The notes under the pieces were generated by a model. That model was given only the letters and a program-made list of their open reading frames with translations. It searched no databases and had not been told where the DNA came from. This document shows positions 31,143 to 60,936 of a stretch of 64,000 nt of DNA, in pieces; positions within the stretch are counted from its first letter, which is position 1; each line of letters starts with the position of its first letter. Source of the stretch: an uncultured bacterium. Its GTDB lineage: Bacteria > Krumholzibacteriota > Krumholzibacteriia > LZORAL124-64-63. The stretch is from NCBI GenBank assembly GCA_937864225.1, contig CALMJK010000004.1, positions 137,949 through 201,948 of the forward strand, in the 5' to 3' direction. The position numbers and the translations under genes are program-made.

Positions 31143-31145
31143 GTT

Positions 31146-33770: not shown

Positions 33771-33798
33771 GCGTTCGCCTCCCTTCCGGCGCGCCGGG

Positions 33799-34749: not shown

Positions 34750-34868
34750 GGGTCGTTTCCCGTTGCGTCCGCCGCCGGTGGGCCGCTAAGATCGGCGTGC
34801 GGCCGGCGGACGTCGTGCGATCCGCCTCGGGGCCGGGTCGCCGGCTCCATCGCGAGGAGTCGTGCCCG

Positions 34869-42300: not shown

Positions 42301-42616
42301 GCTGCTCTACGTGCGCGACGCAGACCAAGCGGTCGTCATCGGGGCTGGCGTGCTGCCGCAGTGGCTGCAGCCTGGATCCGAGGTCCGCGTCGACCTGCCG
42401 ACGCCCTGGGGGTCCGTCGCCTACCGGATGTGGAAGGAGGCGGATCGGTTCCTGGTGAGGGTGGAGGCCGGCATGCCTCCGGGCGGCCTCGTCCTGCAGC
42501 CCCCGCTGCCGGGCCCGCCGCGCGGCGTGACCTGCGACGGCGCGCCGCTGCCGCTCTCGGCCGCTGGCGAGATCGTCGTGCGCACGTCGCCCGCCGAGGT
42601 CGTGATCACGCCGTGA
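39353..42616 (+). CDS. Secreted modular protein: CBM-like jelly roll, discoidin (F5/8C) domain and six-hairpin (alpha/alpha)6 glycosidase-like domain
   Basis: Signal peptide; CBM11/CIA30-like N-domain; LDHDATTAW...WL.LDLG discoidin; YARSWIRDG, EHDSSGQ, YWD and PYE barrel motifs. Confidence 0.72.
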   Translation: MRRVGRQRRCLLAAALALAVTGPGAALGQPAEPPVEASSLPLIRFPDDPPLPGQALIVDDMDDPSRWTAHPADGVALTLGRDAGARDGSLRLDFRFAGGGWAIARRTLDLELPDNWVFTLRVRGAAPPEHLEFKLIDQTGENVWWHVKRDFAFPDEWRTITIRKRQVSFAWGPAGGGEPRRVAAVELAITAGSGGQGTVWFDDLELRALPPAGATPPAPVASASSCRRGRGPARVLDHDATTAWEPRRDDGAPWLALDLGEPREFGGLTLAWAPGRHAADYALEGTLDGATWDTLAVVSGGNGGRDHLYLPDGEALRLRLRPRRPPGAAAPALAALILQPLEWSASREAFFAAIAQEHPRGTFPRGMSGEQVYWTVVGPDADPREGLLSEDGALETGRRRFTIEPFLIVDGRLVTWADQENRQDLDGDARVPRVTWTDPDVGFEVTASALGPASGAAAILASYRVSNPARVRREIALVLAARPFQVNPPAQFLATPGGTAPIRTLAREAVGLRVNGELAVALPTPPDAFGAATFAGGDIVADWLRAGALPPAQAVDDRFGAASGAALYRLVLAPGESRSLVVIVPLDPADESATRALAAAAGDDPVGWARRETARARASSWRGEDRSCTLDLPSAAGRLARTVLAQHDCILVNRAGPAIQPGSRSYARSWIRDGALTSSALLRLRHPEPVREFIEWYAPHQYPSGKIPCVVDERGADPVPEHDSSGQFIFLVAEYWRYTHDRPLAERMWPRVRAAVAYLDSLRRTRTTDEWRAPARAEFYGILPPSISHEGYSAKPMHSYWDDFFALRGFADAAFLARELGRAGEAARLQALHDEFAVDLGASVRAAMARHGIDYVPGCADLGDFDATSTTIALGPTSAAAVLPREAIARTFERYWDNFQRRRAGEPWEAFTPYELRNVGAFVRLGWRERAHELLDWFYGWQRPEGWLQWAEVCWRDERRPRFLGDLPHTWVGSDFIRSALDMLLYVRDADQAVVIGAGVLPQWLQPGSEVRVDLPTPWGSVAYRMWKEADRFLVRVEAGMPPGGLVLQPPLPGPPRGVTCDGAPLPLSAAGEIVVRTSPAEVVITP

Positions 42617-43955: not shown

Positions 43956-43991
43956 GGCTCTCCTTTCCGACTCCCGGGCCGGACGCTGACA

Positions 43992-46900: not shown

Positions 46901-47870
46901 CCGCGAGCTGCTGCCACCGCAGGGCCTGGCGTGCATCCGCCCCGAGACTGGCTAGGCCGGCGGTGGCGTGCGCGCGCGCCGTTGCGAAGGCGGCGTCGAC
47001 GGAGGCGTCGGTGGCGTAGCGGGCGGGCAGCGCCCGCGCCGCCTCGCGATCCGCGGCGGCGCCCAGCGCGAAGGTCAACCGCGCCTGGCCGCCCGGCGCG
47101 AGGTCGACGGGGCGGCGCAGCGCGACGCAAGGGTCGAGCACGCTGCCCGTCGTGCCCGAGAGCTCGGCCCCGGGTTCGAGCGCGGCCGGTTTGGCGGCGC
47201 CGGCGCGCCGTCCGAGGAAGCGCGCGCGATCGGTTTCGCAGCTGACCGGTCCCGCCGCCGGATCCTGCGCGCAGAGCGCGTGCACGAGCCAGGGGTGGTT
47301 TTCCCCGTTGGCCCGCGGGCGGCGGCGGACCAGCAGCACCGGGCGGTCGCCGTCGCGCTCCGTCTGCAGGAACAGGCGGGCGAAGGCCGGGTGGCTCGCG
47401 TGCGCGACGGGATCCAGCAGCACGACTTCCGCGAAGGTGGTCACGTCCAGCCGGCGCGGCCGGGCGGCGCGATTGATCACCGTCAGGCGGCGCAGCTCGC
47501 CGCCCGCGCCGGGCGGCACCGCGATTTCGAGTCGGCAAGCGACTTCGTGCGACTCGCCCGCGATGGTCAGGCACCCGGGTTCCCACGACGTGGACCAAAC
47601 GTCCGGCTCGGCGGGCAGCGCGCCGCCGCCGACGGACCAGACCGCGCCCGTCTCTCGGTCCCGCAGGCAGAGGAAGAGGCCGTCGGCGTCCTCGACGCGG
47701 TCGCCGGCCCAAGCCGTCAGGGCGAGGCCGCATAGCCGACTGAAGCCCGCGCCGCGGCGCGTGACGAGCGCGACATACTCGCCGTCCGACAGCACGGCCG
47801 CCTGTACGCCGGCCTGCTGGGGGCCGCGCGCGCCCGCGCCGCCAGGCCTGCCTGTGCGCGATTCCCGCAT
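43992..47870 (-). CDS. GH94 glycoside phosphorylase, stand-alone Cgs/NdvB C-terminal type (two GT36-associated domains plus catalytic barrel)
   Basis: LSDGEY, PW.NVIAN, FYQSGGAFGYRDQLQD, HWWH, GDWNDGMNRVG..GRGESVWLG, RENGGQYTH and GRGGWTWYTGSSGW. No TM or GT84 region. Confidence 0.85.
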   Translation of the reverse strand: MRESRTGRPGGAGARGPQQAGVQAAVLSDGEYVALVTRRGAGFSRLCGLALTAWAGDRVEDADGLFLCLRDRETGAVWSVGGGALPAEPDVWSTSWEPGCLTIAGESHEVACRLEIAVPPGAGGELRRLTVINRAARPRRLDVTTFAEVVLLDPVAHASHPAFARLFLQTERDGDRPVLLVRRRPRANGENHPWLVHALCAQDPAAGPVSCETDRARFLGRRAGAAKPAALEPGAELSGTTGSVLDPCVALRRPVDLAPGGQARLTFALGAAADREAARALPARYATDASVDAAFATARAHATAGLASLGADARQALRWQQLAAGILYGDPALRAAPAVLARAAGDPSRLARFGLSPGRPLVLLHPGRSAHAAVRAEVEQAHRYWVALGLPIDLAVVEPDGAPDSPRAGAALSIRADDLGPGDSDLLATSARLVVADELPEAPAHPPRGRRPPPAPIAPAAAADPAALVDEAPPLRFWNGHGGFTADGRGYVIPLARDGDGALRLPPLPWVNVIANESCGLIVSETGAACTWRGNSREHRLTPWANDPARDPHGEAFWLRDEASGAVWSPLPGPAPGPGAYTVTHGLGYSRFRHAANGLHIETTLFVDRDAPVRIAALRLTNGADRPRRLALYTYARLALGDTPQSSGRFVVTWRGAEPALLLARNSVAADFAGGAAFAAIVTAAAGGDEISATGDRAAFVGLGGSLAAPAAVVMGGPLDDRVGPGLDACFAQRLPLVVGPRQTVEVACLLGEESDEAAAVALVARLRAPGAVPRAFAAARDRWRDLTGGVRVKTPAPELDVLLNGWLPYQTLGCRIFARAAFYQSGGAFGYRDQLQDASSLMHLDPELTRRQIILHAAHQFVEGDVLHWWHPPAGRGLRTRFADDLLWLPYLTAAYVAATGDRGLLDEAVPYLTARQLAPGEDEAYLLPLPAGELGSVYEHCCRAIDRGLTAGRHDLPLFGAGDWNDGMNRVGREGRGESVWLGFFLYGVLDAFAPLCEARGDAARAARYRQRREAYRLALEQHAWDGDWYRRGWYDDGAVLGSRASDECRIDALAQAWAVISGAAAPARAARALDAVEEHLISDRDGLIRLLAPPFDATPHDPGYIKGYVPGVRENGGQYTHAATWVVRALAEIGRRQRAAALLALLNPINHARTREQVARYKVEPYVICADVYGAEPHVGRGGWTWYTGSSGWYWRVALENVLGLRLEAGARLVVKPCIPDEWPAFTVDYRLPDGRTTYALRVANPRACSARVTAGTLDGVPLAIDETGAIVPLARDGARHVVEITLGP

Positions 47871-47952
47871 CGCCCGCGCTTCTCTCCGTGGTGGGGGCAG
47901 ACCGGGCGCGAGGCGCCTCATCCCGCCGGCGACGCCTCCCTCGGCTGCCCAG

Positions 47953-47974
47953 TCCAAGTCATTTCCAAGTCATT
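47953..47974. repeat. Perfect 11-bp tandem direct repeat
   Basis: TCCAAGTCATT TCCAAGTCATT in the leader upstream of the GH94 gene. Confidence 0.9.
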
Positions 47975-48166: not shown

Positions 48167-48259
48167 CATCCGCCACCCTCTTCGGCGGAGCCGTCCGCGA
48201 GCCGCGGGGGGAGCCGCCTGGGCCTTGAGGTGGGAGCGCTCGCGCGGGGGAGAGGGCTC

Positions 48260-49321
48260 TTGACCACGATCCGCGATGTGGCGCGCGCCGCCGGGGTTTC
48301 GATCGCGACGGTTTCGCGCGTGTTCAACGGCAATCCGCGCGTCGGCGAGGATACCGCCCTGCGGGTCTGGGACGCCGCGGGGGAACTCGATTACTGGCCC
48401 AACGGGGCCGCCCGCAGCCTCACGACCAGTCGCACCCAGACCCTCGGCGTGCTTCTGCCCGACCTGTACGGCGACTTCTTCTCCGAGGTGATTCGCGGCA
48501 TCGACCAGGCCGCGCGCCGCGCGCACTTTCAGATCCTCCTCTCGAGTTCGCACGCCGACCCCATCGAGATCGTCGCCGCGGCGCGCGCCATGCGCGGCCG
48601 CGTGGACGGGCTGATCATCATGGCCTCGGATCGGGGCACGGCCGAGGCCGTGCTTGGGTTCCTGGGGCGGCAGCCGCTGGTCTTCCTCAACCCGTACCTG
48701 GATCCCGACGGCTGCAGCGCCGTGTCGATCGACAACCGTGCGGGCGGGCGCAGCGCGGTCGAGCACCTGATCGCGCTCGGGCACCGCGTGATCGCCACCG
48801 TGCGGGGGCCGGAGGGGAACATCGACGCCGAAGAGCGGCTGGGCGGCTATCGCGACGCCCTGGCCGGCGCCGGACTATCGGCGAGTCCGCAATTGGAGCT
48901 GCCAGGCGATTTCACCGAGACGGCCGGCTTTCGCGCCGTGAGCGGTCTGCTCGCCGCAGTTCCTCGCCCGACGGCCGTGTTCGCTGCCAACGACGCGATG
49001 GCGGCGGGACTGCTCGGCGGCCTGCGCGACGCCGGCGTGGCGGTGCCGGGCGAGATGGCCGTCGTCGGCTTCGATGACATCGGCGTCGCCCGCTGTCTGA
49101 CGCCGCCGCTGACCAGCGTGCGCGTCGATGTGTGCGAATTGGGTCGTCGCGCCGTGCAGTTGCTGCTGGAAACGGTCGGACCGGACGGACCGGCGCCGTG
49201 TCGCCGGGAGGTGCTGCCCGCGCGGCTCGTGCTCCGGGAATCGTGCGGGTGCAGGAGTCGGACCGAGCTGCCGGTGCTCGCGCGCGGGGCCGGCGACTCG
49301 GGCGAGAGGGACCGGATATAA
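48260..49321 (+). CDS. LacI/GalR family transcriptional repressor
   Basis: TIRDVARAAGVSIATVSRV HTH, YWPN.AARSL, ANDAMA and VVGFDD. TTG start. Confidence 0.95.
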   Translation: MTTIRDVARAAGVSIATVSRVFNGNPRVGEDTALRVWDAAGELDYWPNGAARSLTTSRTQTLGVLLPDLYGDFFSEVIRGIDQAARRAHFQILLSSSHADPIEIVAAARAMRGRVDGLIIMASDRGTAEAVLGFLGRQPLVFLNPYLDPDGCSAVSIDNRAGGRSAVEHLIALGHRVIATVRGPEGNIDAEERLGGYRDALAGAGLSASPQLELPGDFTETAGFRAVSGLLAAVPRPTAVFAANDAMAAGLLGGLRDAGVAVPGEMAVVGFDDIGVARCLTPPLTSVRVDVCELGRRAVQLLLETVGPDGPAPCRREVLPARLVLRESCGCRSRTELPVLARGAGDSGERDRI

Positions 49322-49366: not shown

Positions 49367-51280
49367 ATGAGAAGGGGACTGTTCACAGGATTTCTGCTGG
49401 CGTTGGCGCTCGTCGCCGCGGCGCCCGCCCCGGCGCTGATCCGGCCGGGAATGCCGCGCGAGGATGTCATCTGGGCGCGCGTCGCCGCGGCGCCGCTGAC
49501 GCTCGACGGCGTGCTGAACGAAGCGAGCTGGGCGAAGGCGGAATCGACGATCATCAAGTTCGGCCGCGTCAACGGCATCCCGGGCAGCGGCTGGAAGATC
49601 GAGGCCGGCGGCCTGCCGCAGGACTCGACCAGGGTCACGATCAAGTGGCTGGCGCGCGACAACCAGTTGTACCTGGGCGTGCGCGCGCCGGACAAGTACA
49701 TCGGCGGTTCCTCGGAGTTCAACCGCTTCGACGGCCTGCTGATGGGCGTCAAGAACCATCTCAGCGAAGGCGCGCCCAAGGCCGTGGCGGAGTACTTCTA
49801 CGCCTGGTGGTACCCGCATCTGACCGATCCGCAGCCGGTGGGCCAGCTGCCGCGCTTCATCGGGCTGTTCGGCGAACCGGAGCCCGGCGTGGCGCGCACC
49901 CCGGAGGCGATCGCCGCCTGGGACGCCGTGACCGTCGTGCGGGGCAAGACGAACTCCGACTCGACGCTCGCCGATCTCGACGAGGGCTACACGGTCGAGA
50001 TGCGGTTCGACTGCACAGCCGTGGGCTACGACATCACCCGGCCCGAGGGCGACACTTTCGAGTGGAACATCTCGATCTATGATTGCGACGGATGGTGGCC
50101 CTTGAACCTGGGAATCTTCTCCTCCTCGCGCGTCTGGTGGCAGGGGCCGTGGGGCAATTCCGCTGGCTACAACGAGGTGCGGGTGATGTCGCGACCGGAC
50201 GTGACCGTGAGTTCCGGCGCGGCGCCGCCCGTCCTGCCCGAGGTCGTCTATCCGCGCCTGAACGCCGCCCCCACGATCGACGGCAACCTGAACGACGCTG
50301 TCTGGAGCGATCCGCTCGTCTACTCCTTCGACATTCGCTACGGCGACGACGGCTTGCGGCAGACATACCCTGCGGTGGGGCCTTACGTGGCCGGCGAGTG
50401 GCAGCCGGAGGTCAACGGCGGCCTGGCCTACGTCGTCAACCCGGGCGACGCGACGGTCCGCATGTTCGTCTCCGGCGATCGACTCTACGTCGGCTACGAC
50501 GTGCGCGACGAGGTCGTGCAGTACCACACGAACGAGTTCCGCTGGGACGGCTTCTGGCTGCACATGACGGACATCGACTCGCTCGATTTCATCGACCACA
50601 CGCTCAACGGGCACCGCGTCGGCTTCCAGGTCGGGCCCGGCGGCAGCGTTCTGCCCAAGAACTACTTGATCAACCTGATCAGCCTCGGCAAGGCGCAGAT
50701 AGCGCTGTACCTCAAGCCAGGCACGACTGTCGACACGCTCGGCATCGACGTCGACGCCGGCTATTCGGCCGAGATGTGGGTGGACCTGACCGAGCTCGGC
50801 TACACGCCGGGCGCCGTGTCGGGACCGCTTTTCTTGGGCGTCGTGCTGCTGGACGGCGATTCGTACTTGCCGATCACCGACAGCTACGGCACGAAGACCT
50901 GGTGGTTCCGCGAGTACGACAACACCTGCTGTCCGTCCTGGGGATACATCTCGTCGGTGACGACCGGCGTGGAGCCAGGCGATGATCCGGTTTCGGGCGC
51001 GCGCGGTCGCATCGGCAGCTTCCCCAATCCCTCGCTGCAGCCCCATCTCCGCTACAATCTGCCGGAGCGCAGTCGCGTGACCCTGGAGATCTACGACCTG
51101 CGGGGCCGGCTGATCGAGCGCAGATTGCTCGGCACGCAGGAGGAAGGCGAGCGTACCGAGCAACTGTTCGGCCGGCACAAGCACGGCGCCGGCGTTTACG
51201 TGTACCGCCTGCGGCTCGAAGATCCGGCCACGGGTCAGCTGCGTTCACTGCTGTCGGGCAAAACGGTCCTGCTCGACTGA
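49367..51280 (+). CDS. Secreted protein with two CBM9/DOMON-like domains and a CTD
   Basis: Signal peptide; repeated (LT/PT)(L/I)DG.LN(E/D)..W...LY(L/V)G motifs; C-terminal FPNP...LEIYDLRGRLI...GVYVYRL...VLLD. Confidence 0.7.
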   Translation: MRRGLFTGFLLALALVAAAPAPALIRPGMPREDVIWARVAAAPLTLDGVLNEASWAKAESTIIKFGRVNGIPGSGWKIEAGGLPQDSTRVTIKWLARDNQLYLGVRAPDKYIGGSSEFNRFDGLLMGVKNHLSEGAPKAVAEYFYAWWYPHLTDPQPVGQLPRFIGLFGEPEPGVARTPEAIAAWDAVTVVRGKTNSDSTLADLDEGYTVEMRFDCTAVGYDITRPEGDTFEWNISIYDCDGWWPLNLGIFSSSRVWWQGPWGNSAGYNEVRVMSRPDVTVSSGAAPPVLPEVVYPRLNAAPTIDGNLNDAVWSDPLVYSFDIRYGDDGLRQTYPAVGPYVAGEWQPEVNGGLAYVVNPGDATVRMFVSGDRLYVGYDVRDEVVQYHTNEFRWDGFWLHMTDIDSLDFIDHTLNGHRVGFQVGPGGSVLPKNYLINLISLGKAQIALYLKPGTTVDTLGIDVDAGYSAEMWVDLTELGYTPGAVSGPLFLGVVLLDGDSYLPITDSYGTKTWWFREYDNTCCPSWGYISSVTTGVEPGDDPVSGARGRIGSFPNPSLQPHLRYNLPERSRVTLEIYDLRGRLIERRLLGTQEEGERTEQLFGRHKHGAGVYVYRLRLEDPATGQLRSLLSGKTVLLD

Positions 51281-51359: not shown

Positions 51360-54047
51360 ATGCGCCAGGTGAGCCGTCGGATGCGCAGACCGCCGCTTGG
51401 GTTGCTGGCCGCCGCCGGCCTGCTGGCGCTTTTGCCGGCCGGCGTGGCGGACGCGGGCACCACGGGCAAACTCGCGGGGCGCGTGCTCGACGCGAAGCAG
51501 CAACCTCTCCAGGCCGTCACGGTTCTTCTGGCGGGCACGCGCCTGGGCACTTACTCGAACGCCGAGGGGCGCTACAACATCCTCAACGTTCCGGCGGGCA
51601 CCTATGACGTCTCCTTCAGCCGCCTCGGCTACGCGACGAAGCGCGTCCGGGGCGTGATCATGTCCGCCGATCAGACCACGACTCTCGACGCGTCCCTGGC
51701 CGAGACGGAACTGGTCGCCGAGGAAGTCGTCGTCACGGCGGAGCGGCCGCCCGTCGAGCTGGGCGTGACGAGCACCAAGCAGACGCTGACCGCGGAGCAG
51801 ATCGAGTCGCTGCCCGTCCAGAACCTGCAAGACGTCGTGAACCTGCAGGCCGGCGTCGTGGAAGGCCATTTCCGCGGCGGGCGTCTCGGCGAGGTGCAGT
51901 ACCAGGTCGACGGTGTCAGCGTGAACAACGCGTTCAGCAACACGTCGATGCTCAACCTGGACCGCTCGCTGCTGCAGGAGGTCCAGGTCATCAGCGGCAC
52001 CTTCGACGCCGAGTACGGACAGGCCATGAGCGGCGTCGTCAACGCCGTGCTCAAGCAGGGCACCGAGGACTTGCGCTGGAACGCCGAGATCTACGGCGGC
52101 GGATTCGTTTATCTGGGCGGCAACGACCGCTGGCTGGACGGCGACCCGCTGTCCGAGAGCGCGTATCGGCCCGTCGGGACCCAGAGCTATCAACTGACGG
52201 TCAGCGGACCGCTGCCGCTGCGCGACACGGTCTTCCTGGTCAGCGGGCGCCGCTTCGTGTTCGACGATTTCGTCTACGGCGAGCGCCGCTTCGTCCCGAC
52301 GGACTCTTCCTTCATCAGCCTGGGCGTCCTGCGGGGCACGGGCGACTGGGCGCGGGTGCCGCTCGGCTGGACGCGCGAGTGGTCGGGCGTGGCCAAACTG
52401 ACCAACAGCGGGCTCGCCGACCACAGGTTCAACTACCAGGCGACGTTCAGCCTGAACGAGGGCCGGAACACCGATTTCTCCTTCCGTTACAATCCGGACG
52501 GAGCGACGACCTACGAGAACGACACGGTCTCGCACGGCCCCGATTGGACCTGGACGCTGGGGCCTGCGACTTTCCTCAATTTGAGCCTGCGCCAGAACTA
52601 CGTCCACTACCGCGATTATGCGTTCGAGAGCGTCTGGGACGAGAAGTACGACGCGGCCGGTCCGCCCCAGGGCATCTCGAGCTTCGAACAGGGCGTGATC
52701 GTGGAAGGGGTCAGTTTCGGGCGCTACCTCCAGAAGACCAACGCCTTCGTGGCCAAAGGTTCGCTGACCAGCCAGGTGACGCCGGAGCACTTGATGAAGT
52801 TCGGCGGCGAGTTGGAACTGCCGGCCGTCACGTTCGGCACGCCCGGCTATCTGACCTACCGCACCGACCCGGAGACCGGCGAAGTCGTGCTGACGCGCCG
52901 GGTCGACGAGCCGCCGGACTATCCCGGCCCGCGCACGTATCACCCGATGATGGCCGCCGTTTTCGCGCAGGACCAGTACGAGAGCGAGAGCCTGACCGTG
53001 CGCGCCGGCCTGCGCTTCGACTTCATGGATTCGCGGGCCACCCTGCCGGGCGACTTGGCGAATCCGGCGAACGCGATCGAGGGGGTCGATCCGGTCGCCC
53101 CCATCGAGACCACGGCCAAGACGTCGCTTTCGCCGCGCCTGGGCGTGGCCTATCCCATCGAGGACAAGGCGGCCGTGCACTTCGCCTACGGGCATTTCCG
53201 GCAGTTCCCGCCCGTGGGCGAGATGTTCAACAACGCCGATTACAGCGTGCTCTACAACCTGCAAGCCGGCGTCATCCCCTCCGTTCTGGGCAATCCCGAC
53301 GTGAAGCCGGAGAAGACGGTCCAGTACGAGATCGGCTACAAGCACGCCCTGAGCGCGGATCTCGGCGCCGACCTGACGGTCTTCTACAAGGACGTTCGGG
53401 ATCTCCTGGGCGTGGAGTTCATCGACACGTACAACGACGCCGAGTACGCGCGCCTGACGAACATCGATTTCGGCGACGTGCTCGGCATCACCCTGGCGCT
53501 GGACCACCGGCGCCTCGGCCCGCTCAGCGTGGCGCTCGACTACACCTGGCAGCAGGCGATGGGCAACTCCAGCGACCCGCGCGAGACCCAGGTTCGCGCC
53601 TCCGCGGGCGAGGACCCGCGGCCCCGCCTGATCCCCTTCAACTGGGATCAGCGGCACACGTTCAACCTCACGGCCGCCGTCGACCGGCCGGGCGATTACC
53701 TCGTGAGCGCCATCCTGCGCGTGGCCAGCGGTCAGCCCTACACGCCGGCGCTCAACGTGACCACCGGCTTCGGCCTCAACCAGAACACCGGTCGCAAGCC
53801 GTCGGGGGTCTTGCTGGATCTGCGCGCGGAAAAGAAACTGGGCGGCTCGCCCGACCTCGCGATCTTCGCCCGCGTCTTCAACGTCCTCGACGCGGATTAC
53901 TTCAACGGCTTCGTGTTCGACAGCACCGGCAGTCCGGACTACACGCTCGACCCGGTGGGGCAGTACACGACGCTGCGCAACCCGGGCCGCTACTACCAGC
54001 CGCGCCGCCTCGAGATCGGGGCGCGCTTCGGACTGGGCGCGCCGTGA
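51360..54047 (+). CDS. TonB-dependent receptor with N-terminal carboxypeptidase-regulatory-like domain
   Basis: TTGKLAGRV..., plug QAGVV.GHFRGGR.GEV.YQVDG, GTFDAEYGQAMSGVVN, SPRLGVAY, PEKTVQYEIG and WDQRHT. Confidence 0.9.
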   Translation: MRQVSRRMRRPPLGLLAAAGLLALLPAGVADAGTTGKLAGRVLDAKQQPLQAVTVLLAGTRLGTYSNAEGRYNILNVPAGTYDVSFSRLGYATKRVRGVIMSADQTTTLDASLAETELVAEEVVVTAERPPVELGVTSTKQTLTAEQIESLPVQNLQDVVNLQAGVVEGHFRGGRLGEVQYQVDGVSVNNAFSNTSMLNLDRSLLQEVQVISGTFDAEYGQAMSGVVNAVLKQGTEDLRWNAEIYGGGFVYLGGNDRWLDGDPLSESAYRPVGTQSYQLTVSGPLPLRDTVFLVSGRRFVFDDFVYGERRFVPTDSSFISLGVLRGTGDWARVPLGWTREWSGVAKLTNSGLADHRFNYQATFSLNEGRNTDFSFRYNPDGATTYENDTVSHGPDWTWTLGPATFLNLSLRQNYVHYRDYAFESVWDEKYDAAGPPQGISSFEQGVIVEGVSFGRYLQKTNAFVAKGSLTSQVTPEHLMKFGGELELPAVTFGTPGYLTYRTDPETGEVVLTRRVDEPPDYPGPRTYHPMMAAVFAQDQYESESLTVRAGLRFDFMDSRATLPGDLANPANAIEGVDPVAPIETTAKTSLSPRLGVAYPIEDKAAVHFAYGHFRQFPPVGEMFNNADYSVLYNLQAGVIPSVLGNPDVKPEKTVQYEIGYKHALSADLGADLTVFYKDVRDLLGVEFIDTYNDAEYARLTNIDFGDVLGITLALDHRRLGPLSVALDYTWQQAMGNSSDPRETQVRASAGEDPRPRLIPFNWDQRHTFNLTAAVDRPGDYLVSAILRVASGQPYTPALNVTTGFGLNQNTGRKPSGVLLDLRAEKKLGGSPDLAIFARVFNVLDADYFNGFVFDSTGSPDYTLDPVGQYTTLRNPGRYYQPRRLEIGARFGLGAP

Positions 54048-54082
54048 GGCGCGCCACGGCCGGCAAGCGGGGAGAGAGGGGA

Positions 54083-57000
54083 ATGGTGCTGCGGAGATCC
54101 AGATGGATGTTGCCCGTTCTCACGGTGCTCGCGCTCGCCACGGTCGCGCCCGGCGGCGCGGCGGCCGGCGTGCCGACGCCCGTGCCTCCCGAGCAACGGG
54201 GTCGGATCGACGCCGAGCGCTCGGGGCTCCACGACGCCAACAACATGCGCACGATCTTCTGGAACTACGGCATGGTGGGCGACTACCCGCCCGATCCCGG
54301 CAACGTGGACCTGAGCGTTTTCCACTCCGTCGAGGTGCCCAAGGGCAGCGGCATGAACTACAGCGACGGCGTCACGCCGTTCGTCCTGACCCGCATCGTC
54401 CAACGCAACGGCATCCCGGCCTACATCATGGAGACCGGCTTTCGCGAGCGACAGGCGATCAGCGCGCAATACAACCGACAGATGCGCTTCGAGCCGCGCC
54501 CCGGCTATTTCCAGGCCGATCCAGACTTTAACCTGGCGCGGTCGCCCGCGGTCAGCAGCGACCGGCGCACCTGGCCGAACCTGTGGCCCGATCGCCTCGA
54601 CGACCCGGACGATCCGGGCTGGTCGGACAGTTGGAACGGCTACTTCGGCAAGCAGATCGTCGCGGACCAGGAGAGCTACATGGTCCTGGACGACCAATTG
54701 TACGACTCCTGGGATTTCCGGCCCGACAGCCGCGACTCCACGCGCCTGGGCCTGGGCCTGCGCGTCGAGGTGCGCGGTTTCCAGTGGGCCAATCCGCAGG
54801 CGCGCAACGTGATCTTCTGGCACTACGACATCACGAACGAAAGCACGACCGATTACGAGGACATCGTGTTCGGCCTGTACATGGACTCCGGCGTGGGCGG
54901 CTCGGCCCTCTCCTGCGACGGCATCTACGAGTCGGACGATGACAACGCCTATTTCGACCGCACGCTGAACGACCAGGTGATCAACCTGGTCTACACCTAT
55001 GACATGCACGGGCACGGCCGCGACCTGACCAGCGGCTGCGCGCGCACCGGCTACCTCGGCTACGCGTATCTGGAGACGCCGGGCAAGCCGAACGACGACG
55101 TGGACAACGACGAGGACGGCATCACGGACGAGCGGCGCGACGGCGGCCCCGGCACGCTGGTCGAGGGGCAGGAGGCGATCCTGGCGGCGGCGGCGACCCG
55201 CTACGACCTGGCGCGTTTCACCGCGGCCTACGGGCCCGTCGAGGAGACGCCGGCCTACCTGGTCGGCCGCTGGTGGACGGGGGACGAGGACATGGACTGG
55301 GTCGCCGACGTGCACGACGTCGGCGCCGACGGCCTGCTCGGTTCGGGAGACACGGGCGAGGGCGACGGCACGCCGACCCCGGGCGAGCCGAGCTTCGATC
55401 GCACCGACCTGAACGAATCGGATCAGATCGGCCTGACCGGCTTCAAACTGAGCCGGATCGTGCCGGGCGAAGGCAACGACGCGACGGAAGTCGACAACAT
55501 CTGGTTCTTCACGGACGAGTACAACTGGCCGCAGCGGCTGTACGAGCAGTTCACCGACCCCGACCCGACCGTGCGCTTCGGGGAGGACGTCGCCTCCAAC
55601 TACAACATCGCGTTCCTGTTCGCCTCCGGCCCCTTCGCGCTGCGCGCCGGCCAGACCGAGCGCTTCAGTCTGGCCCTGGCCTACGGCGCCGACCTGACGG
55701 AACTGGCGCGCACCGTCAAGACCGTGCAGACGATCTACAACGCGAACTACCGCTTCGCGGTCCCGCCCACCGAGCCCACCGTGACCGCGGAGGAGGGCGA
55801 CGGTTTCGTGCGCCTGAGTTGGAACGACGTGGCGGAGCACGCCATCGATCCGGTCACCGGGCAGGTCGATTTCGAGGGCTACCGCATCTACCGCTCCACC
55901 GATCCCGATTTCCGCGACCCTAAGGTGATCTTCACGGGCACCGGCTCCGAGCCGATCTACAACGGCCGGCCGATCGCGCAGTTCGACCTCATCGACGGGA
56001 TCAGCGGCTTCTCGGAGCAGGTCGTCGAGGGCGTCGCGTTCTACCTCGGCGCCGAAAGCGGCCTCGCCCACACTTGGACCGACTACAGCGTGACCAACGG
56101 CCAGGAGTACTTCTACGGCGTCTGCGCCTACGACTACGGCGCGGACCCTCCGCTGGACTTCCCGCCCTCGGAAAACGACCTCGCCATCAACCGCACGACG
56201 CGAGGCGGGATCGTGCTGCCGCCCAACATCGTGCAAGTCAGGCCGAACCCGCGGGCGGCCGGTTTCCGCCCGGCGTCCGCCGACAGCGCGCTGCACGTCG
56301 CCGGGCGCGGCTCCGGCAGCGTGGAGGTCGCGGTCGTGAACTCGGGCATCGTGCCCGCCGAGCACGAGTTCCGGATCACCTTCGCCGTGCCGCATCCCGA
56401 CAGCATCCGCGCCTCGACCTACGCCCTCACGGATCTCACGACCGGGGAATTGTTCTTCGACACGGGTCGCGACCTGATCGGGCAGGGCATCGGGCCGACC
56501 GGAGCCGGCCTGCTGCCGATCGTCGCCACGCCGCAGCTGCCGAGCGTCGACGCCCAGCGCACCGGCTTCCGCCCGGGAGGAGCCACCGACGGCGCGCCGC
56601 GCATCTACTTCACCGGTGTGGCGCCGAATCGCCGCGTGACCGGCTACCCCGACGACATCACGGTCGAGTTTTCGGACACGGTGCTCGACACATCGGTCGC
56701 GTACAGCTCGCGCTATCCGCTCGCGCTGCCCGCGAAGTTCCGCGTCGTCGCCCACGGAACGGCCGGCGACTTCCGACTCGACTTCCGTTTTCGCGATCCG
56801 GATCTCGACGGCACGCTGGGCGTGTACGGGGACGAGATCGACATCGTGACCTATCTCCCGGAATACCCAGGGATCCCCGTCTCCATCTGGCGGCTCGATT
56901 TCGCGAGCGCGGCCACCGCGGCCACCGTGCCGCCGACCGCAGGCGATTTCTTCGACCTCTACCTGACGCGTCCGTTCAGCGACGACGACATCTTCGCCTT

Positions 57001-57355
57001 CGCGACCCACGCCGAGGGCATCGACGCGGCGGCCGCGGGCGGGGCTTTCCAGCCGTACGTCGTGCCCAACCCCTACGTCGGCTCCGCCAGCTTCGAGCCC
57101 GAGCGCTACGCCGTCTCGGGCCGGGGCGAGCGGCGGATCGAATTCCGCGGCCTGCCGGCGCAGTGCACGATCCGCATCTACACTGTGCGTGGGGAACTGG
57201 TGCAACTGCTCCGGCACGACGGCACGTACGACGGTTATGAGCCCTGGGATCTGCGGACGCGGGACAATCTCGACGTGGCTCCGGGGCTCTACATTTTCCA
57301 CGTCGACGGGGGCGCGCTGGGCTCGCGCACCGGCAAGTTCGCCCTGATCAAGTGA
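54083..57355 (+). CDS. Large secreted hypothetical protein (1090 aa) with Asp-rich Ca-binding loops, FN3-like domain and distinct CTD
   Basis: SPI signal peptide with no lipobox; DxDxDG loops; VRLSWND...FEGYRIYRS; tail YVVPNPY...RRIEFRGLP..CTIRIYTVRGELV...WDL...APGLYIFHV...GKFALIK. Confidence 0.8.
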   Translation: MVLRRSRWMLPVLTVLALATVAPGGAAAGVPTPVPPEQRGRIDAERSGLHDANNMRTIFWNYGMVGDYPPDPGNVDLSVFHSVEVPKGSGMNYSDGVTPFVLTRIVQRNGIPAYIMETGFRERQAISAQYNRQMRFEPRPGYFQADPDFNLARSPAVSSDRRTWPNLWPDRLDDPDDPGWSDSWNGYFGKQIVADQESYMVLDDQLYDSWDFRPDSRDSTRLGLGLRVEVRGFQWANPQARNVIFWHYDITNESTTDYEDIVFGLYMDSGVGGSALSCDGIYESDDDNAYFDRTLNDQVINLVYTYDMHGHGRDLTSGCARTGYLGYAYLETPGKPNDDVDNDEDGITDERRDGGPGTLVEGQEAILAAAATRYDLARFTAAYGPVEETPAYLVGRWWTGDEDMDWVADVHDVGADGLLGSGDTGEGDGTPTPGEPSFDRTDLNESDQIGLTGFKLSRIVPGEGNDATEVDNIWFFTDEYNWPQRLYEQFTDPDPTVRFGEDVASNYNIAFLFASGPFALRAGQTERFSLALAYGADLTELARTVKTVQTIYNANYRFAVPPTEPTVTAEEGDGFVRLSWNDVAEHAIDPVTGQVDFEGYRIYRSTDPDFRDPKVIFTGTGSEPIYNGRPIAQFDLIDGISGFSEQVVEGVAFYLGAESGLAHTWTDYSVTNGQEYFYGVCAYDYGADPPLDFPPSENDLAINRTTRGGIVLPPNIVQVRPNPRAAGFRPASADSALHVAGRGSGSVEVAVVNSGIVPAEHEFRITFAVPHPDSIRASTYALTDLTTGELFFDTGRDLIGQGIGPTGAGLLPIVATPQLPSVDAQRTGFRPGGATDGAPRIYFTGVAPNRRVTGYPDDITVEFSDTVLDTSVAYSSRYPLALPAKFRVVAHGTAGDFRLDFRFRDPDLDGTLGVYGDEIDIVTYLPEYPGIPVSIWRLDFASAATAATVPPTAGDFFDLYLTRPFSDDDIFAFATHAEGIDAAAAGGAFQPYVVPNPYVGSASFEPERYAVSGRGERRIEFRGLPAQCTIRIYTVRGELVQLLRHDGTYDGYEPWDLRTRDNLDVAPGLYIFHVDGGALGSRTGKFALIK

Positions 57356-57369
57356 GCGTGGGGAGCGGC

Positions 57370-58374
57370 ATGCGAAGAGTGACGGCGGCAGTCCTGGCGA
57401 GCGTGCTCCTGGCGGGCGGCGGGGCCTGTGCGCAGACGAAGACCGGCACGACGATCGGCCAGTTCCTCGCGATCGAGCCCAGCGCCCGTCACGCGGGCAT
57501 GGGCAACGCGGGCGTGGGAGCCATCGGCGGCATCGAATCGGTCTGGTTCAATCCCGGGATCGTCGGCACGCTCGACGGGGCCGCGGTGACCTTCACGCAC
57601 ATCGACTGGTTCGCGGACGTCAACTTCGACTATGCCGCGGCGGCGCTCGCGATCGGCGGCTTCGGCAACCTCTGCCTGGCCGTGACGGCGCTCAATTCGG
57701 GCGACATCGACGTGCGGACCGTGGACGAGCCGCTGGGCACCGGAGAGCGGTACGACGTGGCCAACACGGCGCTGAGCCTGGGCTACGGGCGGCTGATCAC
57801 GAGCCGTTTCGCGGCGGGCCTGCAACTGAACTACGTGCACGAACGGATCTGGCACAGCAGCTACGGCACGATGACGGCGAGCGCGGGCACGGTGTACCGG
57901 CTCAACGAGTCCGGGATGCGCCTGGGCTTCAGCCTCTCCAACCTCGGCACGCGGGCCGGCTTCAGCGGAAGGGATCTGGCGATCCAGTACGACGCCGACT
58001 CGGACGAGTACGGCGACAACAGCGCGCTGCCGGCGGAACAGCTCACCGACGAGTTCCCGGTGCCCCTGGTGTTCCGACTGGGTCTGAGCGTGCCCTACCG
58101 CTTCAGCGACGACAGCGAGCTCTTGCTCCTCGCCGACGCGTTGCATCCCAACGACAACGACGAAGCGCTCAATCTGGGCGCCGAGTGGACGGTGCAGAGA
58201 ATCTTCGCGCTGCGCGCGGGGTACCAGTCGCTCTTCCAGCCCGACTCTGAGCTGGGTCTCACGCTCGGTTTTGGCCTCAGGTTGAACCGCGATCGCCTGC
58301 GGTTCAGCTACGGCTGGGCCGACCATGACCTGCTGGGAGCGACCCATCGCATGACCCTGGCCGTCGGTCTGTAA
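57370..58374 (+). CDS. PorV/PorQ-family outer-membrane beta-barrel
   Basis: FLAIEPSARHAGMG.A.VG, WFNP, alternating barrel strands and C-terminal HRMTLAVGL. Confidence 0.8.
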   Translation: MRRVTAAVLASVLLAGGGACAQTKTGTTIGQFLAIEPSARHAGMGNAGVGAIGGIESVWFNPGIVGTLDGAAVTFTHIDWFADVNFDYAAAALAIGGFGNLCLAVTALNSGDIDVRTVDEPLGTGERYDVANTALSLGYGRLITSRFAAGLQLNYVHERIWHSSYGTMTASAGTVYRLNESGMRLGFSLSNLGTRAGFSGRDLAIQYDADSDEYGDNSALPAEQLTDEFPVPLVFRLGLSVPYRFSDDSELLLLADALHPNDNDEALNLGAEWTVQRIFALRAGYQSLFQPDSELGLTLGFGLRLNRDRLRFSYGWADHDLLGATHRMTLAVGL

Positions 58375-58398: not shown

Positions 58399-60006
58399 AT
58401 GAGCATCAACCAGCGCGCGGTCCGGGTCATTGTCGTGGTTTTGGCCACCCTCGCGGCGACGGCGGCCGCGGCTCCCGCCCGCGCCACGACCCTCACCACT
58501 CCGGCGCTGCTCGACACCCTGCAGCGCGCGGCCTTCGATTTCTTCTGGAACGAGGCCAATCCCGCCAACGGGCTGATCAAAGACCGCTCCGCCTCGTGGT
58601 CGCCGTGCAGCATCGCCTCCACCGGATTCGGTCTCACGGCCATCTGCATCGGTATCGACCACGGCTGGATCTCGCGCGAGGAGGGGAGGGCCCGCGTGCT
58701 CACGACGCTCGGCACCTTCTGGAACGGTTCTCAGGGCGCGGCCGCGTCCGGCGTCATCGGCTACCAGGGTTTCTTCTACCACTTCCTCGACATGACCACG
58801 GCCACCCGCACCTGGGACTGCGAGTTGTCGAGCGTGGACACGGCCTGGCTTCTGACCGGTATGCTGGACTGCCGGGAGTACTTCGACACCGACGAGCCGC
58901 TGGATGTCGAGGTCCGCGCGCTGGTCGACAACATCTACAACCGCGTCAACTGGGAATTCATGCGCGATGGCGGCATCGCCCTCAAGATGGGCTGGCTGCC
59001 GGGAACCGGGTTCGCCAACTTCGGCTACTGGATCGGCTACAACGAGGCCATGGCGCTCTACATTCTGGCGCTGGGCTCCCCGACCTACCCCATCCCGACG
59101 ACCTGCTGGAACGTCTGGGTGAGCGGCTACCAGTGGGCGAGCTACTACGGTCAGGAGTATGTGATCTTCCCCCCGCTCTTCGGCCACCAGTACTCCCACT
59201 GCTGGATCGATTTCCGCTACCTGCAGGACTCCTACATGCGTTACCGGGGGATCACCTACCACGAGAACTCGCGGCGCGCGACGTACGCTGCCCAGGCCTA
59301 CTGTGTCGCCAACCCCGGGGGCTTCCTGGGCTACGGACCAGACTGGGGCCTGACCGCCTCGGACGATCCGGTCGTGGGCTACCAGGCGCACGGCGCGCCG
59401 CCCCCCATGAACGACAACGGCACGATCACCCCGACCGCGGCGGCGGCCTCGATCGCTTTCGCGCCGGAGATCGTCGTGCCGACCCTGCACCACTGGTTCG
59501 ATGACTACCGCGGTTGGCTCTGGGGACCGTACGGCTTCAAGGACGCCTTCAATCTCTCGCGCGGCTGGTGGTCGCCGGACGTGATCGGGATCGATCAGGG
59601 CCCGATCATCCTCATGATCGAGAACTATCTCAACCGCGCCGTGTGGGCCCGCTTCATGCGCAACGCCGCGATCCAAACCGGTCTGGCCAGAGCCGGTTTC
59701 ACGCGGACGGTCGGCGTGGCCGCGGGTCCCGGCGAGCAGCCGCCGCGGATCGGGCTGGCGCAGAATTCCCCGAACCCCTTCCGCGGCAGGGCCAAGGTGG
59801 CGCTGGAATTGACGGCCGACGGGCCGGCGCGCCTGGGGCTGTACGACCTGCGGGGGCGCCGCGTGCGCAAGTTTGTCGATTCCCATCTTGTTGCGGGGAA
59901 ACATGTTATCGAGATAGATGGACAGGGGTTGCCAAGTGGGATATACTTCCTCCGCTTGGAAGCCTGTGGCCAAAAAACAGGGAGGCGCTGCGCTATCCTG
60001 GACTGA
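58399..60006 (+). CDS. Secreted GH144-like beta-1,2-glucanase with CTD
   Basis: SPI signal; LQRAAFDFFW, SIASTGFGL, GFFYHF, ELSSVDTAWL, GYNEA, PPLFGHQYS and IGIDQG; tail QNSPNPF...GLYDLRGRRV...SGIYFLRL. Confidence 0.8.
   Translation: MSINQRAVRVIVVVLATLAATAAAAPARATTLTTPALLDTLQRAAFDFFWNEANPANGLIKDRSASWSPCSIASTGFGLTAICIGIDHGWISREEGRARVLTTLGTFWNGSQGAAASGVIGYQGFFYHFLDMTTATRTWDCELSSVDTAWLLTGMLDCREYFDTDEPLDVEVRALVDNIYNRVNWEFMRDGGIALKMGWLPGTGFANFGYWIGYNEAMALYILALGSPTYPIPTTCWNVWVSGYQWASYYGQEYVIFPPLFGHQYSHCWIDFRYLQDSYMRYRGITYHENSRRATYAAQAYCVANPGGFLGYGPDWGLTASDDPVVGYQAHGAPPPMNDNGTITPTAAAASIAFAPEIVVPTLHHWFDDYRGWLWGPYGFKDAFNLSRGWWSPDVIGIDQGPIILMIENYLNRAVWARFMRNAAIQTGLARAGFTRTVGVAAGPGEQPPRIGLAQNSPNPFRGRAKVALELTADGPARLGLYDLRGRRVRKFVDSHLVAGKHVIEIDGQGLPSGIYFLRLEACGQKTGRRCAILD
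59919..59947 (+). promoter_or_regulatory. sigma70 promoter embedded in the 3' end of the GH144-CTD gene
   Basis: TGGACA-N17-TATACT, coinciding with a sharp local drop in GC3. Confidence 0.7.
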
Positions 60007-60138
60007 GCAGCGGCTCAGGGGGTTTTTGCCGAACGAAAGGGGGGTGCTTTTCGTTAGGTTGTGTTCGTGAAGCATGAACGCTTGAGCATTCACTACGAAG
60101 CATCGCGTGGGAGCGACGAGACAAAAGGAGCGACAACC

Positions 60139-60936
60139 ATGCGTACTAACCGTTGGCGTTTGATTGGTATGGCTTTCTTGGTTGCGAGCACCGTGGCGGG
60201 CGCTGCCGTCGCGGCGACGCCTGATGTGAACGGCGCCATCGTCATCGAGCGCGTCTTCAACGACTGCCCGGGCTCGACGCTCACGGTCGTCAACGACTAT
60301 CCGTGGGAGATCATGATCCAGGACGTCGGCTCGAACTGCTACGGCTGGGCGAACCTGCACGTCTGGCGCATGGCCTATGACGGCGCCGAAGTGCTGTTCC
60401 CCAACGACAGCGCCTTCCGCATCTGCGGGAACCTGACGATCACGGGTGACGGCGCGGGCGAAGCCGGCCTGCAGATCGGGCCCTGGTGGTCCGAGGCGGA
60501 CGGGCGCTTCCAAGTGCGCTCGACGGACGGCGAGATCGCCTGCTGGGGCGGCCGTCTGCCGTTCTTCTCGTTCACGGCCACGTTCGGCGTGACCTACGTC
60601 AAGGGCAACACGATCAACCTTTGCATGACGTACCTGCCCGGTGATCTGGACGAGTCGAACCCCGGCACGATCCAGTACCAGGTCTTCTACGACGGCATGT
60701 TCTACAGCAGCGGTCGCCTGCCCTTCGACGAGGGCAACCCCTCCGAGCCCTACGGGCTGTGGGGCATTCTGGACGACGCCAAGGTCGGCGGCTTTTTCCA
60801 GCCGCTGTGGGCCTTGGGCGGCAATCCGAACGCCACGATCGCGGCCACCTTCAACGACATCTGCTGGCAGGACCTGTACGCTGTGCCGACCGAGGAATCG
60901 AGCTGGGGCCAGGTGAAGAGTCTCTACCGAGACTGA
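60139..60936 (+). CDS. Secreted Cys-containing beta-rich hypothetical protein with short C-terminal tag
   Basis: AAGGAG RBS, signal peptide, 6 Cys, ends AVPTEESSWGQVKSLYRD. Confidence 0.8.
   Translation: MRTNRWRLIGMAFLVASTVAGAAVAATPDVNGAIVIERVFNDCPGSTLTVVNDYPWEIMIQDVGSNCYGWANLHVWRMAYDGAEVLFPNDSAFRICGNLTITGDGAGEAGLQIGPWWSEADGRFQVRSTDGEIACWGGRLPFFSFTATFGVTYVKGNTINLCMTYLPGDLDESNPGTIQYQVFYDGMFYSSGRLPFDEGNPSEPYGLWGILDDAKVGGFFQPLWALGGNPNATIAATFNDICWQDLYAVPTEESSWGQVKSLYRD

Follow-up and report, generated by a model that had tools for sequence, protein, structure and literature searches.

A conserved gene triad of TonB-dependent receptor, large tailed protein and PorV-like barrel that probably stands in for the SusC/SusD pair

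What fills the place of SusD when a TonB-dependent receptor lies among genes for glycan breakdown and is followed by no SusD-type lipoprotein? The question is raised by a 64-kb stretch of DNA from an uncultured bacterium of the Krumholzibacteriota (contig CALMJK010000004.1), the whole of which we call the window. Four consecutive + strand genes of the window encode a TonB-dependent receptor, a large protein of 1090 residues, an outer-membrane barrel of the PorV/PorQ family, and a glycoside hydrolase family 144 (GH144) protein with a tail of the kind that the T9SS (type IX secretion system) uses. We propose, with a probability of about 0.55, that the first three of these genes, the triad, encode a lipoprotein-free analogue of SusCD, in which a T9SS-exported glycan-binding partner is held by its own carrier barrel beside the transporter. 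In other words, the triad probably stands in for the classic SusC/SusD pair.

A first-pass annotation, made from the letters of the sequence, had already placed these four genes on the + strand, and all four are where it put them (Table 1). Its description of the gene junctions and of the large protein stands as well. The large gene begins 35 nt past the receptor gene, behind a GGAG-rich stretch, in a region whose G+C content is ∼65–77%, and its TGA stop (57353–57355) lies 14 nt before the ATG of the barrel gene (57370), just as claimed; a GTG at 57352 that overlaps this stop (GTGA) is the start chosen by gene callers in orthologues. The large protein opens with the Sec signal peptide MVLRRSRWMLPVLTVLALATVAPGGAAAG, of the signal peptidase I (SPI) type, has no lipobox cysteine, and ends in ...GKFALIK, the last part of a C-terminal domain (CTD) that was rightly called distinct. 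The claim that no SusD lipoprotein follows the receptor is likewise borne out: Pfam, searched up to E ≤ 10, returned nothing for the large protein, SusD types included, and SusD/RagB has no match in the window locus.

Is this arrangement a feature of one genome, or does it recur? Two censuses, both drawn from best-scoring matches rather than from random samples, together cover 165 loci in genomes and metagenomes. For the forward census, a pattern scan with a diverse alignment and one genome per species yielded 80 loci, and family hidden Markov models (HMMs) built from the scanned loci and applied to six-frame fragments gave 88 large genes in 85 loci; the hosts are Krumholzibacteriia, Calditrichia, Ignavibacteria/Melioribacteraceae, KSB1, Neomarinimicrobiota, Rhodothermales, Stahlbacteria and assorted metagenome-assembled genomes (MAGs) labelled 'Bacteroidota'. 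Where the contig has room, a receptor lies directly upstream of the large gene in 67 of 69 cases and a barrel directly downstream in 69 of 73, and the full canonical order is found in 54 of 57. All of the exceptions retain the three genes within the locus: L016 reads large–large–receptor–barrel, i.e. two large genes share one receptor and one barrel; L025 reads receptor–barrel–X–large; and L026 has an additional gene between the large gene and the barrel. The reverse census started from 81 barrels on metagenome contigs, found with an alignment of 10 closer barrels and biased to one part of the barrel family. Directly upstream of the barrel, an open reading frame (ORF) with the family-type tail ends in 66 of 71 cases, and the whole triad is present for 34 of the 38 barrels with enough room; at four barrels an extra tail-bearing protein of ∼1050 residues intervenes, and at L118 no large gene was found within 765 nt upstream of the barrel, which is all that its contig offers. 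For the first-pass suggestion of a recurrent triad, the outcome is strongly positive: the three genes keep their order in almost all of the related loci examined, and chance falls far short of explaining this. Orthologous loci keep an even longer order (GH94, LacI, tail protein, receptor, large protein, barrel, GH144, small protein), often with junctions that overlap by 1–4 nt.

Variants of the locus deserve mention in their own right. L042 and L060 each hold two tandem triads, with one barrel per copy. The intervening ∼1050-residue proteins (L026:13422–16571, L111:4592–7768, L112:4312–7482 and L121:4694–7918) carry an ordinary type-A-like tail (...SRKLLLIK). In an Ignavibacteria MAG (L014:8588–13253), the receptor gene and the large gene are each split into two ORFs, either by decay of the triad or by assembly frameshifts.

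The members of the triad have also diverged together. Pairwise distance matrices from 51 complete triads correlate at r = 0.86 (receptor–large protein), 0.73 (large protein–barrel) and 0.84 (receptor–barrel), with a Mantel p of 0.001, and nearest neighbours coincide in 45–59% of cases against 2% expected. The mean pairwise identities of the three proteins are similar (38%, 39% and 40%). Because the matrices correlate and the nearest neighbours coincide, the triad is, judged from these comparisons, inherited, duplicated and diversified as a whole unit. Such co-diversification is expected of a complex of cognate partners; shared history alone gives correlations of this sort too.

What does the triad travel with? 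We clustered 581 flanking ORFs of the 85 loci and scanned representatives of the 20 commonest clusters. The first-pass annotation had pointed to the flanking carbohydrate-active enzymes (CAZymes) as a check on its reading, and for several substrate types the flanks do contain CAZymes along with regulators and inner-membrane sugar transporters. Tail-bearing families among the clusters are carbohydrate-binding module (CBM) family 20 proteins (17 loci), GH144 (13), CBM9 (12) and GH13 (10), accompanied by FG-GAP proteins with a tail; GH16 occurs with or without a tail, GH94 flanks 10 loci, and GH3 is also present. Regulation and inner-membrane import are represented by LacI regulators (19 loci), histidine kinase/sigma54 pairs, sugar ATP-binding cassette (ABC) binding proteins and permeases, and SSF symporters, and no SusD-like family is found among the 20 commonest flanking families. 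By our own approximate tally of the gene maps, ∼18 loci are of a beta-1,2-glucan type (GH144/GH94), ∼13 of a laminarin type (CBM9-tail, GH16, GH3, SSF), ∼19 of a starch type (CBM20-tail, GH13), and ∼5 of an FG-GAP type (FG-GAP-tail). Nearly always, a tail-bearing CBM-like protein is encoded immediately ahead of the receptor gene or immediately behind the barrel gene. Rosettibacter firmus, a cultured species, is laid out in this way too, as is a complete Ignavibacterium genome.

The window itself is of the beta-1,2-glucan type. It holds the gene set by which a polysaccharide utilization locus (PUL) is recognized functionally, namely a TonB-dependent transporter together with a LacI regulator, two GH144 genes, GH94, GH1 and ABC permeases, and by its gene content the region is a predicted beta-1,2-glucan utilization island without SusD. 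The GH144 behind the barrel, rightly described in the first-pass annotation as CTD-bearing, scores 251 bits with PF10091 and matches the endo-beta-1,2-glucanases 8xul (E 4e-113) and 5gzh (E 6e-56) in the PDB; its tail scores 23.5 bits with TIGR04183 (cutoff 23) and 26.1 bits with PF18962 (cutoff 27), and the protein is a probable surface or secreted depolymerase. The closest solved relative of the 1321-residue GH94 protein is the GH94 domain of a cyclic beta-1,2-glucan synthase (834 bits).

At the center of the triad stands a protein family that lacks any Pfam or NCBIfam model and appears to be undescribed. Of the 8000 candidates that a word-indexed search scored, 2317 are relatives; the best 120, all full-length, are 63–79% identical and come from MAGs labelled Krumholzibacteria, Eisenbacteria, Latescibacteria and Gemmatimonadota. 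HMMER, run over 1.84 billion representatives of 50% identity clusters, matched 3779 clusters at E ≤ 1e-3, 582 of them also at E ≤ 1e-30; most are 1000–1600 residues long and 33–45% identical. Every source-given name in the family is 'hypothetical protein', and no Pfam domain is on record for it. All full-length members share the ending ...W(D/N)L..KDG.D.A.G.Y.YHV.APG.GEKIGKFA(V/I)IK. Between phyla, orthologues of the same substrate type are 53–79% identical (53–64% for L006–L014, and ∼50% in another subfamily), whereas paralogues are 30–40% identical. Conservation among orthologues is highest in the N-terminal domain (0.69–0.88 over residues 51–350), and paralogues diverge most at residues 351–400 (a helical insert largely missing in paralogues), 451–500 and 751–950 while agreeing at 201–250, 401–450, 551–600 and in the tail. 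Two short contigs with family members carry labels from outside the Fibrobacteres–Chlorobi–Bacteroidetes (FCB) group, Methylomirabilota (L032, 59%) and Victivallales (L070, 32%); these assignments are most likely binning errors and not true non-FCB occurrences.

The predicted fold gives some idea of what this protein might do. An AlphaFold model built on an 89-sequence alignment that includes paralogues has a mean predicted local distance difference test score (pLDDT) of 85.5 and a predicted template modelling score (pTM) of 0.80; an earlier run on 40 close orthologues had left the N-terminal 560 residues at pLDDT < 50. The model is almost wholly beta and consists of an N-terminal domain (residues ∼30–560), an Fn3-like domain, two beta-sandwiches and the tail, and its high pTM points to domains packed into one fairly rigid body, not strung out like beads. 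The N-terminal domain contains Asp-rich loops of the DxDxDG calcium type, e.g. DNDEDGITDE at 341–350 and an invariant D401...D447 stretch. In a Foldseek search against the PDB, PorZ ranks first and PorU eighth by E-value, and there are probability-1.0, low-TM matches to GH94, GH116, ExoMA2 and dextran dextrinase; whole-model TM-scores are at most 0.24 because of the multiple domains, and the matches are readable only for the fold class of the N-terminal domain and the tail. In our reading of this whole-model search, the enzyme matches would cover the N-terminal beta-supersandwich alone, because the model is too helix-poor to hold the helical catalytic barrel of those enzymes. A PDB profile search with the orthologue alignment returned nothing beyond one Fn3 match (E 0.34). 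We considered and rejected the idea that the large protein is a PorZ homologue, as the tail and generic beta-domains alone match; its sole NCBIfam match at E ≤ 1 is to a PorZ tail, and this match is weak (E 0.06).

Could the large protein instead be an enzyme? It would then be a surface-anchored member of an undescribed CAZyme or accessory family, with the barrel as its anchor and the receptor importing its products without any lid contact. We regard this explanation as unlikely, even though the N-terminal domain has family-invariant Asp, Glu and Trp residues, resembles the beta-supersandwich of GH94/GH116/GH15-type enzymes, and is strongly conserved within a substrate type. No (alpha/alpha)6 or other known catalytic fold was matched, and most of the invariant acidic residues sit in the DxDxDG-type calcium loops that all paralogues share, whatever their substrate. 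Moreover, the loci already encode a tail-bearing endo-enzyme for each substrate (GH144, GH16 or GH13), and one catalytic machinery for alpha-1,4-, beta-1,3- and beta-1,2-glucans is itself improbable. The predicted fold, while no proof, fits carbohydrate binding better than catalysis, and the stand-alone enzyme that would have undercut the first-pass proposal is not what we see, since the protein has no recognizable enzyme domain.

How would such a protein reach the cell surface? T9SS cargo with a type-A CTD uses PorV, and cargo with a type-B CTD uses co-encoded PorP/SprF barrels that then anchor it, while PorZ and PorU retain their CTDs and stay on PorQ and PorV (PMC10994853, PMC10202324, PMC9143113). 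A cognate carrier that anchors its cargo by an uncleaved tail is therefore an established principle (PMC10202324, PMC10994853), and a T9SS is reported as possible in other FCB phyla (PMC11285876). The tail of the large protein (motif order VVPNPY ... E..GRGER loop ... IRIYT..GELV ... GKFALIK) goes unseen by the curated type-A (TIGR04183/PF18962) and type-B (TIGR04131/PF13585) models at Pfam E ≤ 10 and NCBIfam E ≤ 1. Because hhalign aligns a profile of its last 105 residues with the type-A tails of the neighbouring proteins at 95% probability (E 3.6e-8), the tail is, by profile comparison, a remote relative of T9SS type-A CTDs. It is also exclusive, in that its own HMM scores 96–171 bits on all 82 large-family proteins matched versus at most 32 bits on anything else in the loci. 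In the AlphaFold model the tail forms a predicted beta-sandwich (residues 1019–1088), preceded by an insert with a family-invariant E1005...G1013-R-G-E-R1017 motif; this insert is the sole part of the tail that the model leaves unplaced (pLDDT < 50 at 1000–1013), and a conserved, unplaced loop could plausibly be a docking element.

If the tail is a sorting signal, then the barrel might be a transient T9SS carrier that hands the large protein on for cleavage and lipopolysaccharide attachment, or for release, and no standing complex would exist. This course of events seems quite unlikely to us. PorV itself acts as a shuttle (PMC10994853), the tail does not vary among paralogues, which would suit a signal read by common machinery, and the window encodes a tail-bearing C25 peptidase. 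On the other hand, a generic shuttle needs no barrel gene per cargo gene, the barrels co-diversify with the triad and are almost never found apart from it, and the known cognate carriers PorQ and PorP/SprF retain their cargo (PMC10202324).

The barrel belongs to the PorV/PorQ family, as the first-pass annotation had it: NCBIfam model NF033709 scores 167 bits against a cutoff of 90 over residues 27–332 of 334. Its scores lie under the equivalog cutoffs for PorV (NF033710, 54 versus 250 bits) and PorQ (NF033711, 75.9 versus 220 bits), and the PorP/SprF model PF11751 gives 13.7 bits (E 0.046), under its gathering score of 22.3. The only PDB sequence match is Flavobacterium johnsoniae PorV (6h3i_F, E 1.3e-3). 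The Pfam PorV model, PF19572, has no match on the GC-rich barrel of the window at E ≤ 10 and is on record for paralogous barrels of Rosettibacter and Ignavibacterium (L086:12104–13147, L087:12136–13167), so annotation pipelines that use Pfam only would miss the barrel of the window. We take the barrel to be the putative cognate carrier and anchor of the large protein. The first-pass annotation had drawn an analogy with type-B cargo and its co-encoded carrier; the logic of that analogy stands but the family membership does not, as the tail falls under neither the type-A nor the type-B models and the barrel is PorV/PorQ-like, not PorP/SprF.

PorV-family barrels are FadL homologues, and a faint Toluene_X match is on record for paralogous barrels; might the barrel, then, be a FadL-type channel or porin with a transport role of its own, co-regulated with the large protein but not binding it? 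We think this very unlikely. The PorV/PorQ-family match is well above cutoff, the barrel gene comes immediately after the tail-bearing gene in >90% of loci with overlapping or very short junctions, and glucan loci offer no obvious hydrophobic substrate. The first-pass annotation had named a FadL-type transporter as a finding that would tell against it, and what is found is a PorV/PorQ-family member and no recognizable FadL transporter.

The receptor, for its part, looks like an importer. Its Pfam domains are CarboxypepD_reg, Plug and TonB_dep_Rec_b-barrel (113 bits), and its layout comprises a signal peptide, a carboxypeptidase-regulatory-like N-terminal extension, a TonB box (EEVVVTAERP at residues 121–130, nt 51720–51749), a plug and a 22-strand-type barrel. 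It does not reach the SusC/RagA model TIGR04056 (63.8 bits versus a cutoff of 368), with which its N-terminal 125 residues alone align. A role as a siderophore or haem receptor was considered and rejected: no partial NCBIfam match comes anywhere near its cutoff, and the setting is one of glycan catabolism. Least supported, and scarcely credible to us, is the alternative raised in the first-pass annotation that the triad is a self-contained TonB-energized device for export or assembly of the large protein, for although the receptor and large genes are tightly coupled and TonB–ExbB–ExbD genes lie near some loci, the receptor has an ordinary import architecture (TonB box, plug, barrel), inner-membrane sugar importers and cytoplasmic catabolic enzymes adjoin it, the tails of neighbouring proteins point to a general T9SS, and no TonB-dependent exporter has been described to our knowledge.

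How, then, might a lipoprotein-free analogue of SusCD work? The GH144, exported through its ordinary T9SS tail, would cut beta-1,2-glucan at the cell surface. The 1090-residue protein would cross the inner membrane by Sec and then the outer membrane by way of its special C-terminal domain, whereupon its cognate PorV/PorQ-family barrel would take it over and keep it on the surface with the tail uncleaved, much as PorQ keeps PorZ and SprF-like barrels keep type-B cargo. The N-terminal domain, which is conserved within a substrate type and divergent between types, would bind the oligosaccharide and present it to the adjacent receptor as a lid or platform; the receptor would import it with TonB–ExbBD; and ABC permeases, the GH94 phosphorylase and the GH1 glucosidase would complete catabolism under LacI control. 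A place beside the transporter, like that of SusD or of a surface glycan-binding protein, is suggested because a receptor is obligatory in front of the large gene, the surroundings are PUL-like, and the diversification of the cargo is linked to substrate. The first-pass reading, a private barrel that tethers the large protein beside the receptor as a lid or scaffold, is partly supported. At a shade below even odds, and thus tentatively, we put forward the stronger proposition of a standing three-protein complex, in which a T9SS-exported partner of ∼1100 residues with its own class of sorting domain is permanently tethered by a dedicated PorV-like barrel, as a widespread second FCB solution to glycan import.

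Several points weigh against the proposal of a SusCD analogue. We infer the physical contacts on which it depends (tail with barrel, large protein with receptor, and the three-protein complex), and the same is true of T9SS dependence, surface retention and glycan binding by the large protein. The tail is near-invariant across paralogues whose barrels are ∼40% identical and is for this reason unlikely, on sequence grounds, to encode barrel specificity; its invariance agrees better with a shared reader (the translocon, for example) than with a private lock-and-key, which tells against the first-pass 'private receptor' where the tail is concerned, and what makes each barrel 'private' may be located elsewhere or be no more than co-expression. 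A few loci have a permuted order, or a barrel that is parted from the large gene by the ∼1050-residue tail-bearing protein, and in loci with this insert the barrel could serve more than one cargo. The N-terminal domain may be catalytic. No T9SS core gene (SprA/Sov, PorK/L/M/N) was found among the ORFs scanned in the 64 kb of the window, and a T9SS in this genome is deduced solely from the at least five tail-bearing proteins that the window encodes, a C25 peptidase and an M14 carboxypeptidase included. Finally, the xylan cluster table of Rhodothermus marinus DSM 4252 lists a TonB-dependent receptor (Rmar_1070), a Por-tail hypothetical protein (Rmar_1071) and a further hypothetical protein (Rmar_1072) that adjoin Xyn10A and a true SusC/SusD pair (PMC6987092, Table 1). 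Judged by annotation, these three genes look like a candidate triad; among the 120 best matches to a Rhodothermaceae family member, none was a protein of R. marinus. If Rmar_1070–1072 is a triad, then the module need not replace SusCD everywhere, because this cluster has a SusC/SusD pair as well.

Comparison with known systems helps to place the triad. Like SusC/SusD (RagA/RagB), it puts the transporter gene first and then the gene for an extracellular partner; the transporter bears a carboxypeptidase-regulatory-like extension at its N-terminus; CAZymes for the particular substrate, a regulator and inner-membrane importers surround the genes; the diversification of the partner follows substrate; and an extra surface binding protein is encoded alongside. 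Unlike SusD, which is a helical lipoprotein of ∼550 residues, the partner is a 1000–1600-residue all-beta Sec/SPI protein with a T9SS-type tail; a PorV-like barrel is the obligatory third gene; the transporter fails the SusC/RagA model; and the triad occurs chiefly in Ignavibacteria, Calditrichota, KSB1, Marinimicrobia, Krumholzibacteria and Rhodothermales. With type-B cargo and PorP/SprF (SprB–SprF; PG1035–PorP), the triad shares a large surface protein with a C-terminal sorting domain followed by the gene for its own FadL/PorV-like barrel, and the type-B carrier is thought to anchor uncleaved cargo (PMC10202324, PMC9143113, PMC10994853); here, in contrast, tail and barrel belong to other families, and what the cargo is tied to is not gliding but a TonB-dependent receptor and glycan breakdown. 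In the PorZ–PorQ and PorU–PorV pairs of Porphyromonas gingivalis, a CTD-retaining cargo is held on a barrel of the same NCBIfam family, and PorZ and PorU are among the Foldseek matches noted above; those genes, however, are not adjacent, their function is cargo processing, and the triad barrel remains under both equivalog cutoffs. Non-SusD lipoprotein 'lids' of Bacteroides also accompany non-SusC TonB-dependent transporters as genetically linked extracellular partners (bioRxiv 10.1101/2023.03.17.533168), but these belong to other families, are lipoproteins, and lack both a T9SS tail and a barrel of their own. In the BAM complex of Bacteroidota, the loops of BamG, a 14-strand FadL-like barrel, hold the surface-exposed BamH beside another large barrel (PMC12578637); that complex is a machine for outer-membrane protein assembly and provides only a structural precedent for a barrel as anchor. 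Thus the two kinds of arrangement, a TonB-dependent transporter with an extracellular partner and a T9SS cargo with a cognate carrier, are each known, whereas no description seems to exist of the two in combination, of the tail class or of the protein family; full-text literature searches found no published description of the triad or of the large-protein family.

Table 1. Features of the triad locus and its surroundings in the window
Feature	Position (nt)	Strand	Basis or context
Upstream part of catabolic island: second GH144, ABC permease(s), 1365-aa F5/8-type-C protein	34797–42616	+	Gene set also flanks orthologous triads in Ignavibacteria and Calditrichia
GH1 beta-glucosidase, on divergent side with GH94	42606–43991	-	
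GH94 phosphorylase, 1321 aa, divergently transcribed	43992–47957	-	
LacI-family regulator, operon head	48230–49321	+	LacI genes flank 19 triad loci
637-aa secreted protein with type-A-like T9SS tail	49367–51280	+	TIGR04183 21.7 bits, just under cutoff 23
TonB-dependent receptor, 895 aa	51360–54047	+	Pfam; TonB box; homologue directly upstream of large gene in 67/69 loci
Large partner protein, 1090 aa, SPI signal peptide, predicted all-beta, multi-domain	54083–57355	+	
Family-specific C-terminal domain of large protein, aa ∼991–1090	57053–57352	+	hhalign; family HMM; invariant residues
PorV/PorQ-family outer-membrane barrel, 334–340 aa	57352 (GTG) or 57370 (ATG)–58374	+	NF033709; PDB 6h3i_F; census
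GH144 endo-beta-1,2-glucanase homologue with type-A T9SS tail	58399–60006	+	PF10091; PDB; tail models
Secreted protein, ∼265 aa from internal Met (signal peptide after it), no family match	60061–60936	+	Kept directly after GH144 in orthologous loci L002–L004

The second GH144 (34797–36341, +; PF10091 251 bits; phmmer 2.4e-108 versus the tail-bearing copy) gave no NCBIfam match, tail model included, at E ≤ 0.1, and may be a periplasmic enzyme that acts after import; it is followed by the ABC permease(s) at 36610–38535. The 637-residue protein before the receptor is a probable surface glycan-binding protein: its orthologues have faint CBM9 and FlgD_ig matches, and in other triad loci its slot is filled by CBM9-CTD, CBM20-CTD or FG-GAP-CTD proteins. 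Within 30675–33905 (-) lies an ExbB (MotA/TolQ/ExbB) gene at 31146–31910, with a small ORF downstream and a gene for a 664-residue tetratricopeptide repeat (TPR) protein upstream. The group resembles the TPR–TonB–ExbD–ExbB cluster that adjoins an orthologous triad in L004 and may be the energy supply of the receptor.

Farther away, the window encodes two large secreted peptidases with FlgD_ig/Por_Secre_tail-type tails (8007–10880, +, and 10118–13255, +). One, a C25 peptidase of gingipain type, comprises a propeptide, Ig-like and P domains and has a partial likeness to the PorU sortase that, at 57 bits, is far below cutoff, and the other is an M14 carboxypeptidase; together, by their predicted domains, they are further evidence of T9SS-type tail use in this organism. 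At 22405–25739 (-), genes for an ABC-type auxiliary protein (PF09822 and DUF7088), an ABC-2 permease and an ABC ATPase stand in a row, which we take to be the layout of the gliding/T9SS-associated GldA/F/G transporter of Bacteroidota, as a candidate identity only. Absent from the window locus and, unexpectedly, present in 23 of the 85 triad loci (e.g. L049:14899–16662, and L016, L018, L019, L021, L023, L024, L036, L073, L076 and L080) is a SurA/PpiD-like protein of ∼590 residues with two parvulin peptidyl-prolyl isomerase (PPIase) domains, usually encoded right after the barrel or just before the receptor or CBM9-tail gene. This double-parvulin protein may be a dedicated periplasmic chaperone; the SprA translocon includes a PPIase subunit (PMC10994853).

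What would the triad mean for the bacteria that carry it? The large-protein family is present in cultured strains (Ignavibacterium, Rosettibacter, Melioribacteraceae isolates and possibly Rhodothermus marinus), and the hypothesis is thus directly testable. If true, it would link type IX secretion mechanistically to nutrient uptake, in what would be, as far as our literature searches showed, the first case found of a T9SS carrier barrel that builds a nutrient-uptake complex, and the tail would be a new and exclusive class of T9SS-type sorting domain. PUL discovery depends largely on SusC/SusD pairs, and it is therefore largely blind in Ignavibacteria, Calditrichota, KSB1, Marinimicrobia, Krumholzibacteria and their relatives, groups that abound in sediments and soils, in the dark ocean and in bioreactors. 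A three-gene marker for laminarin, starch and beta-1,2-glucan loci would alter how metagenomes are read for the role of these phyla in carbon turnover.

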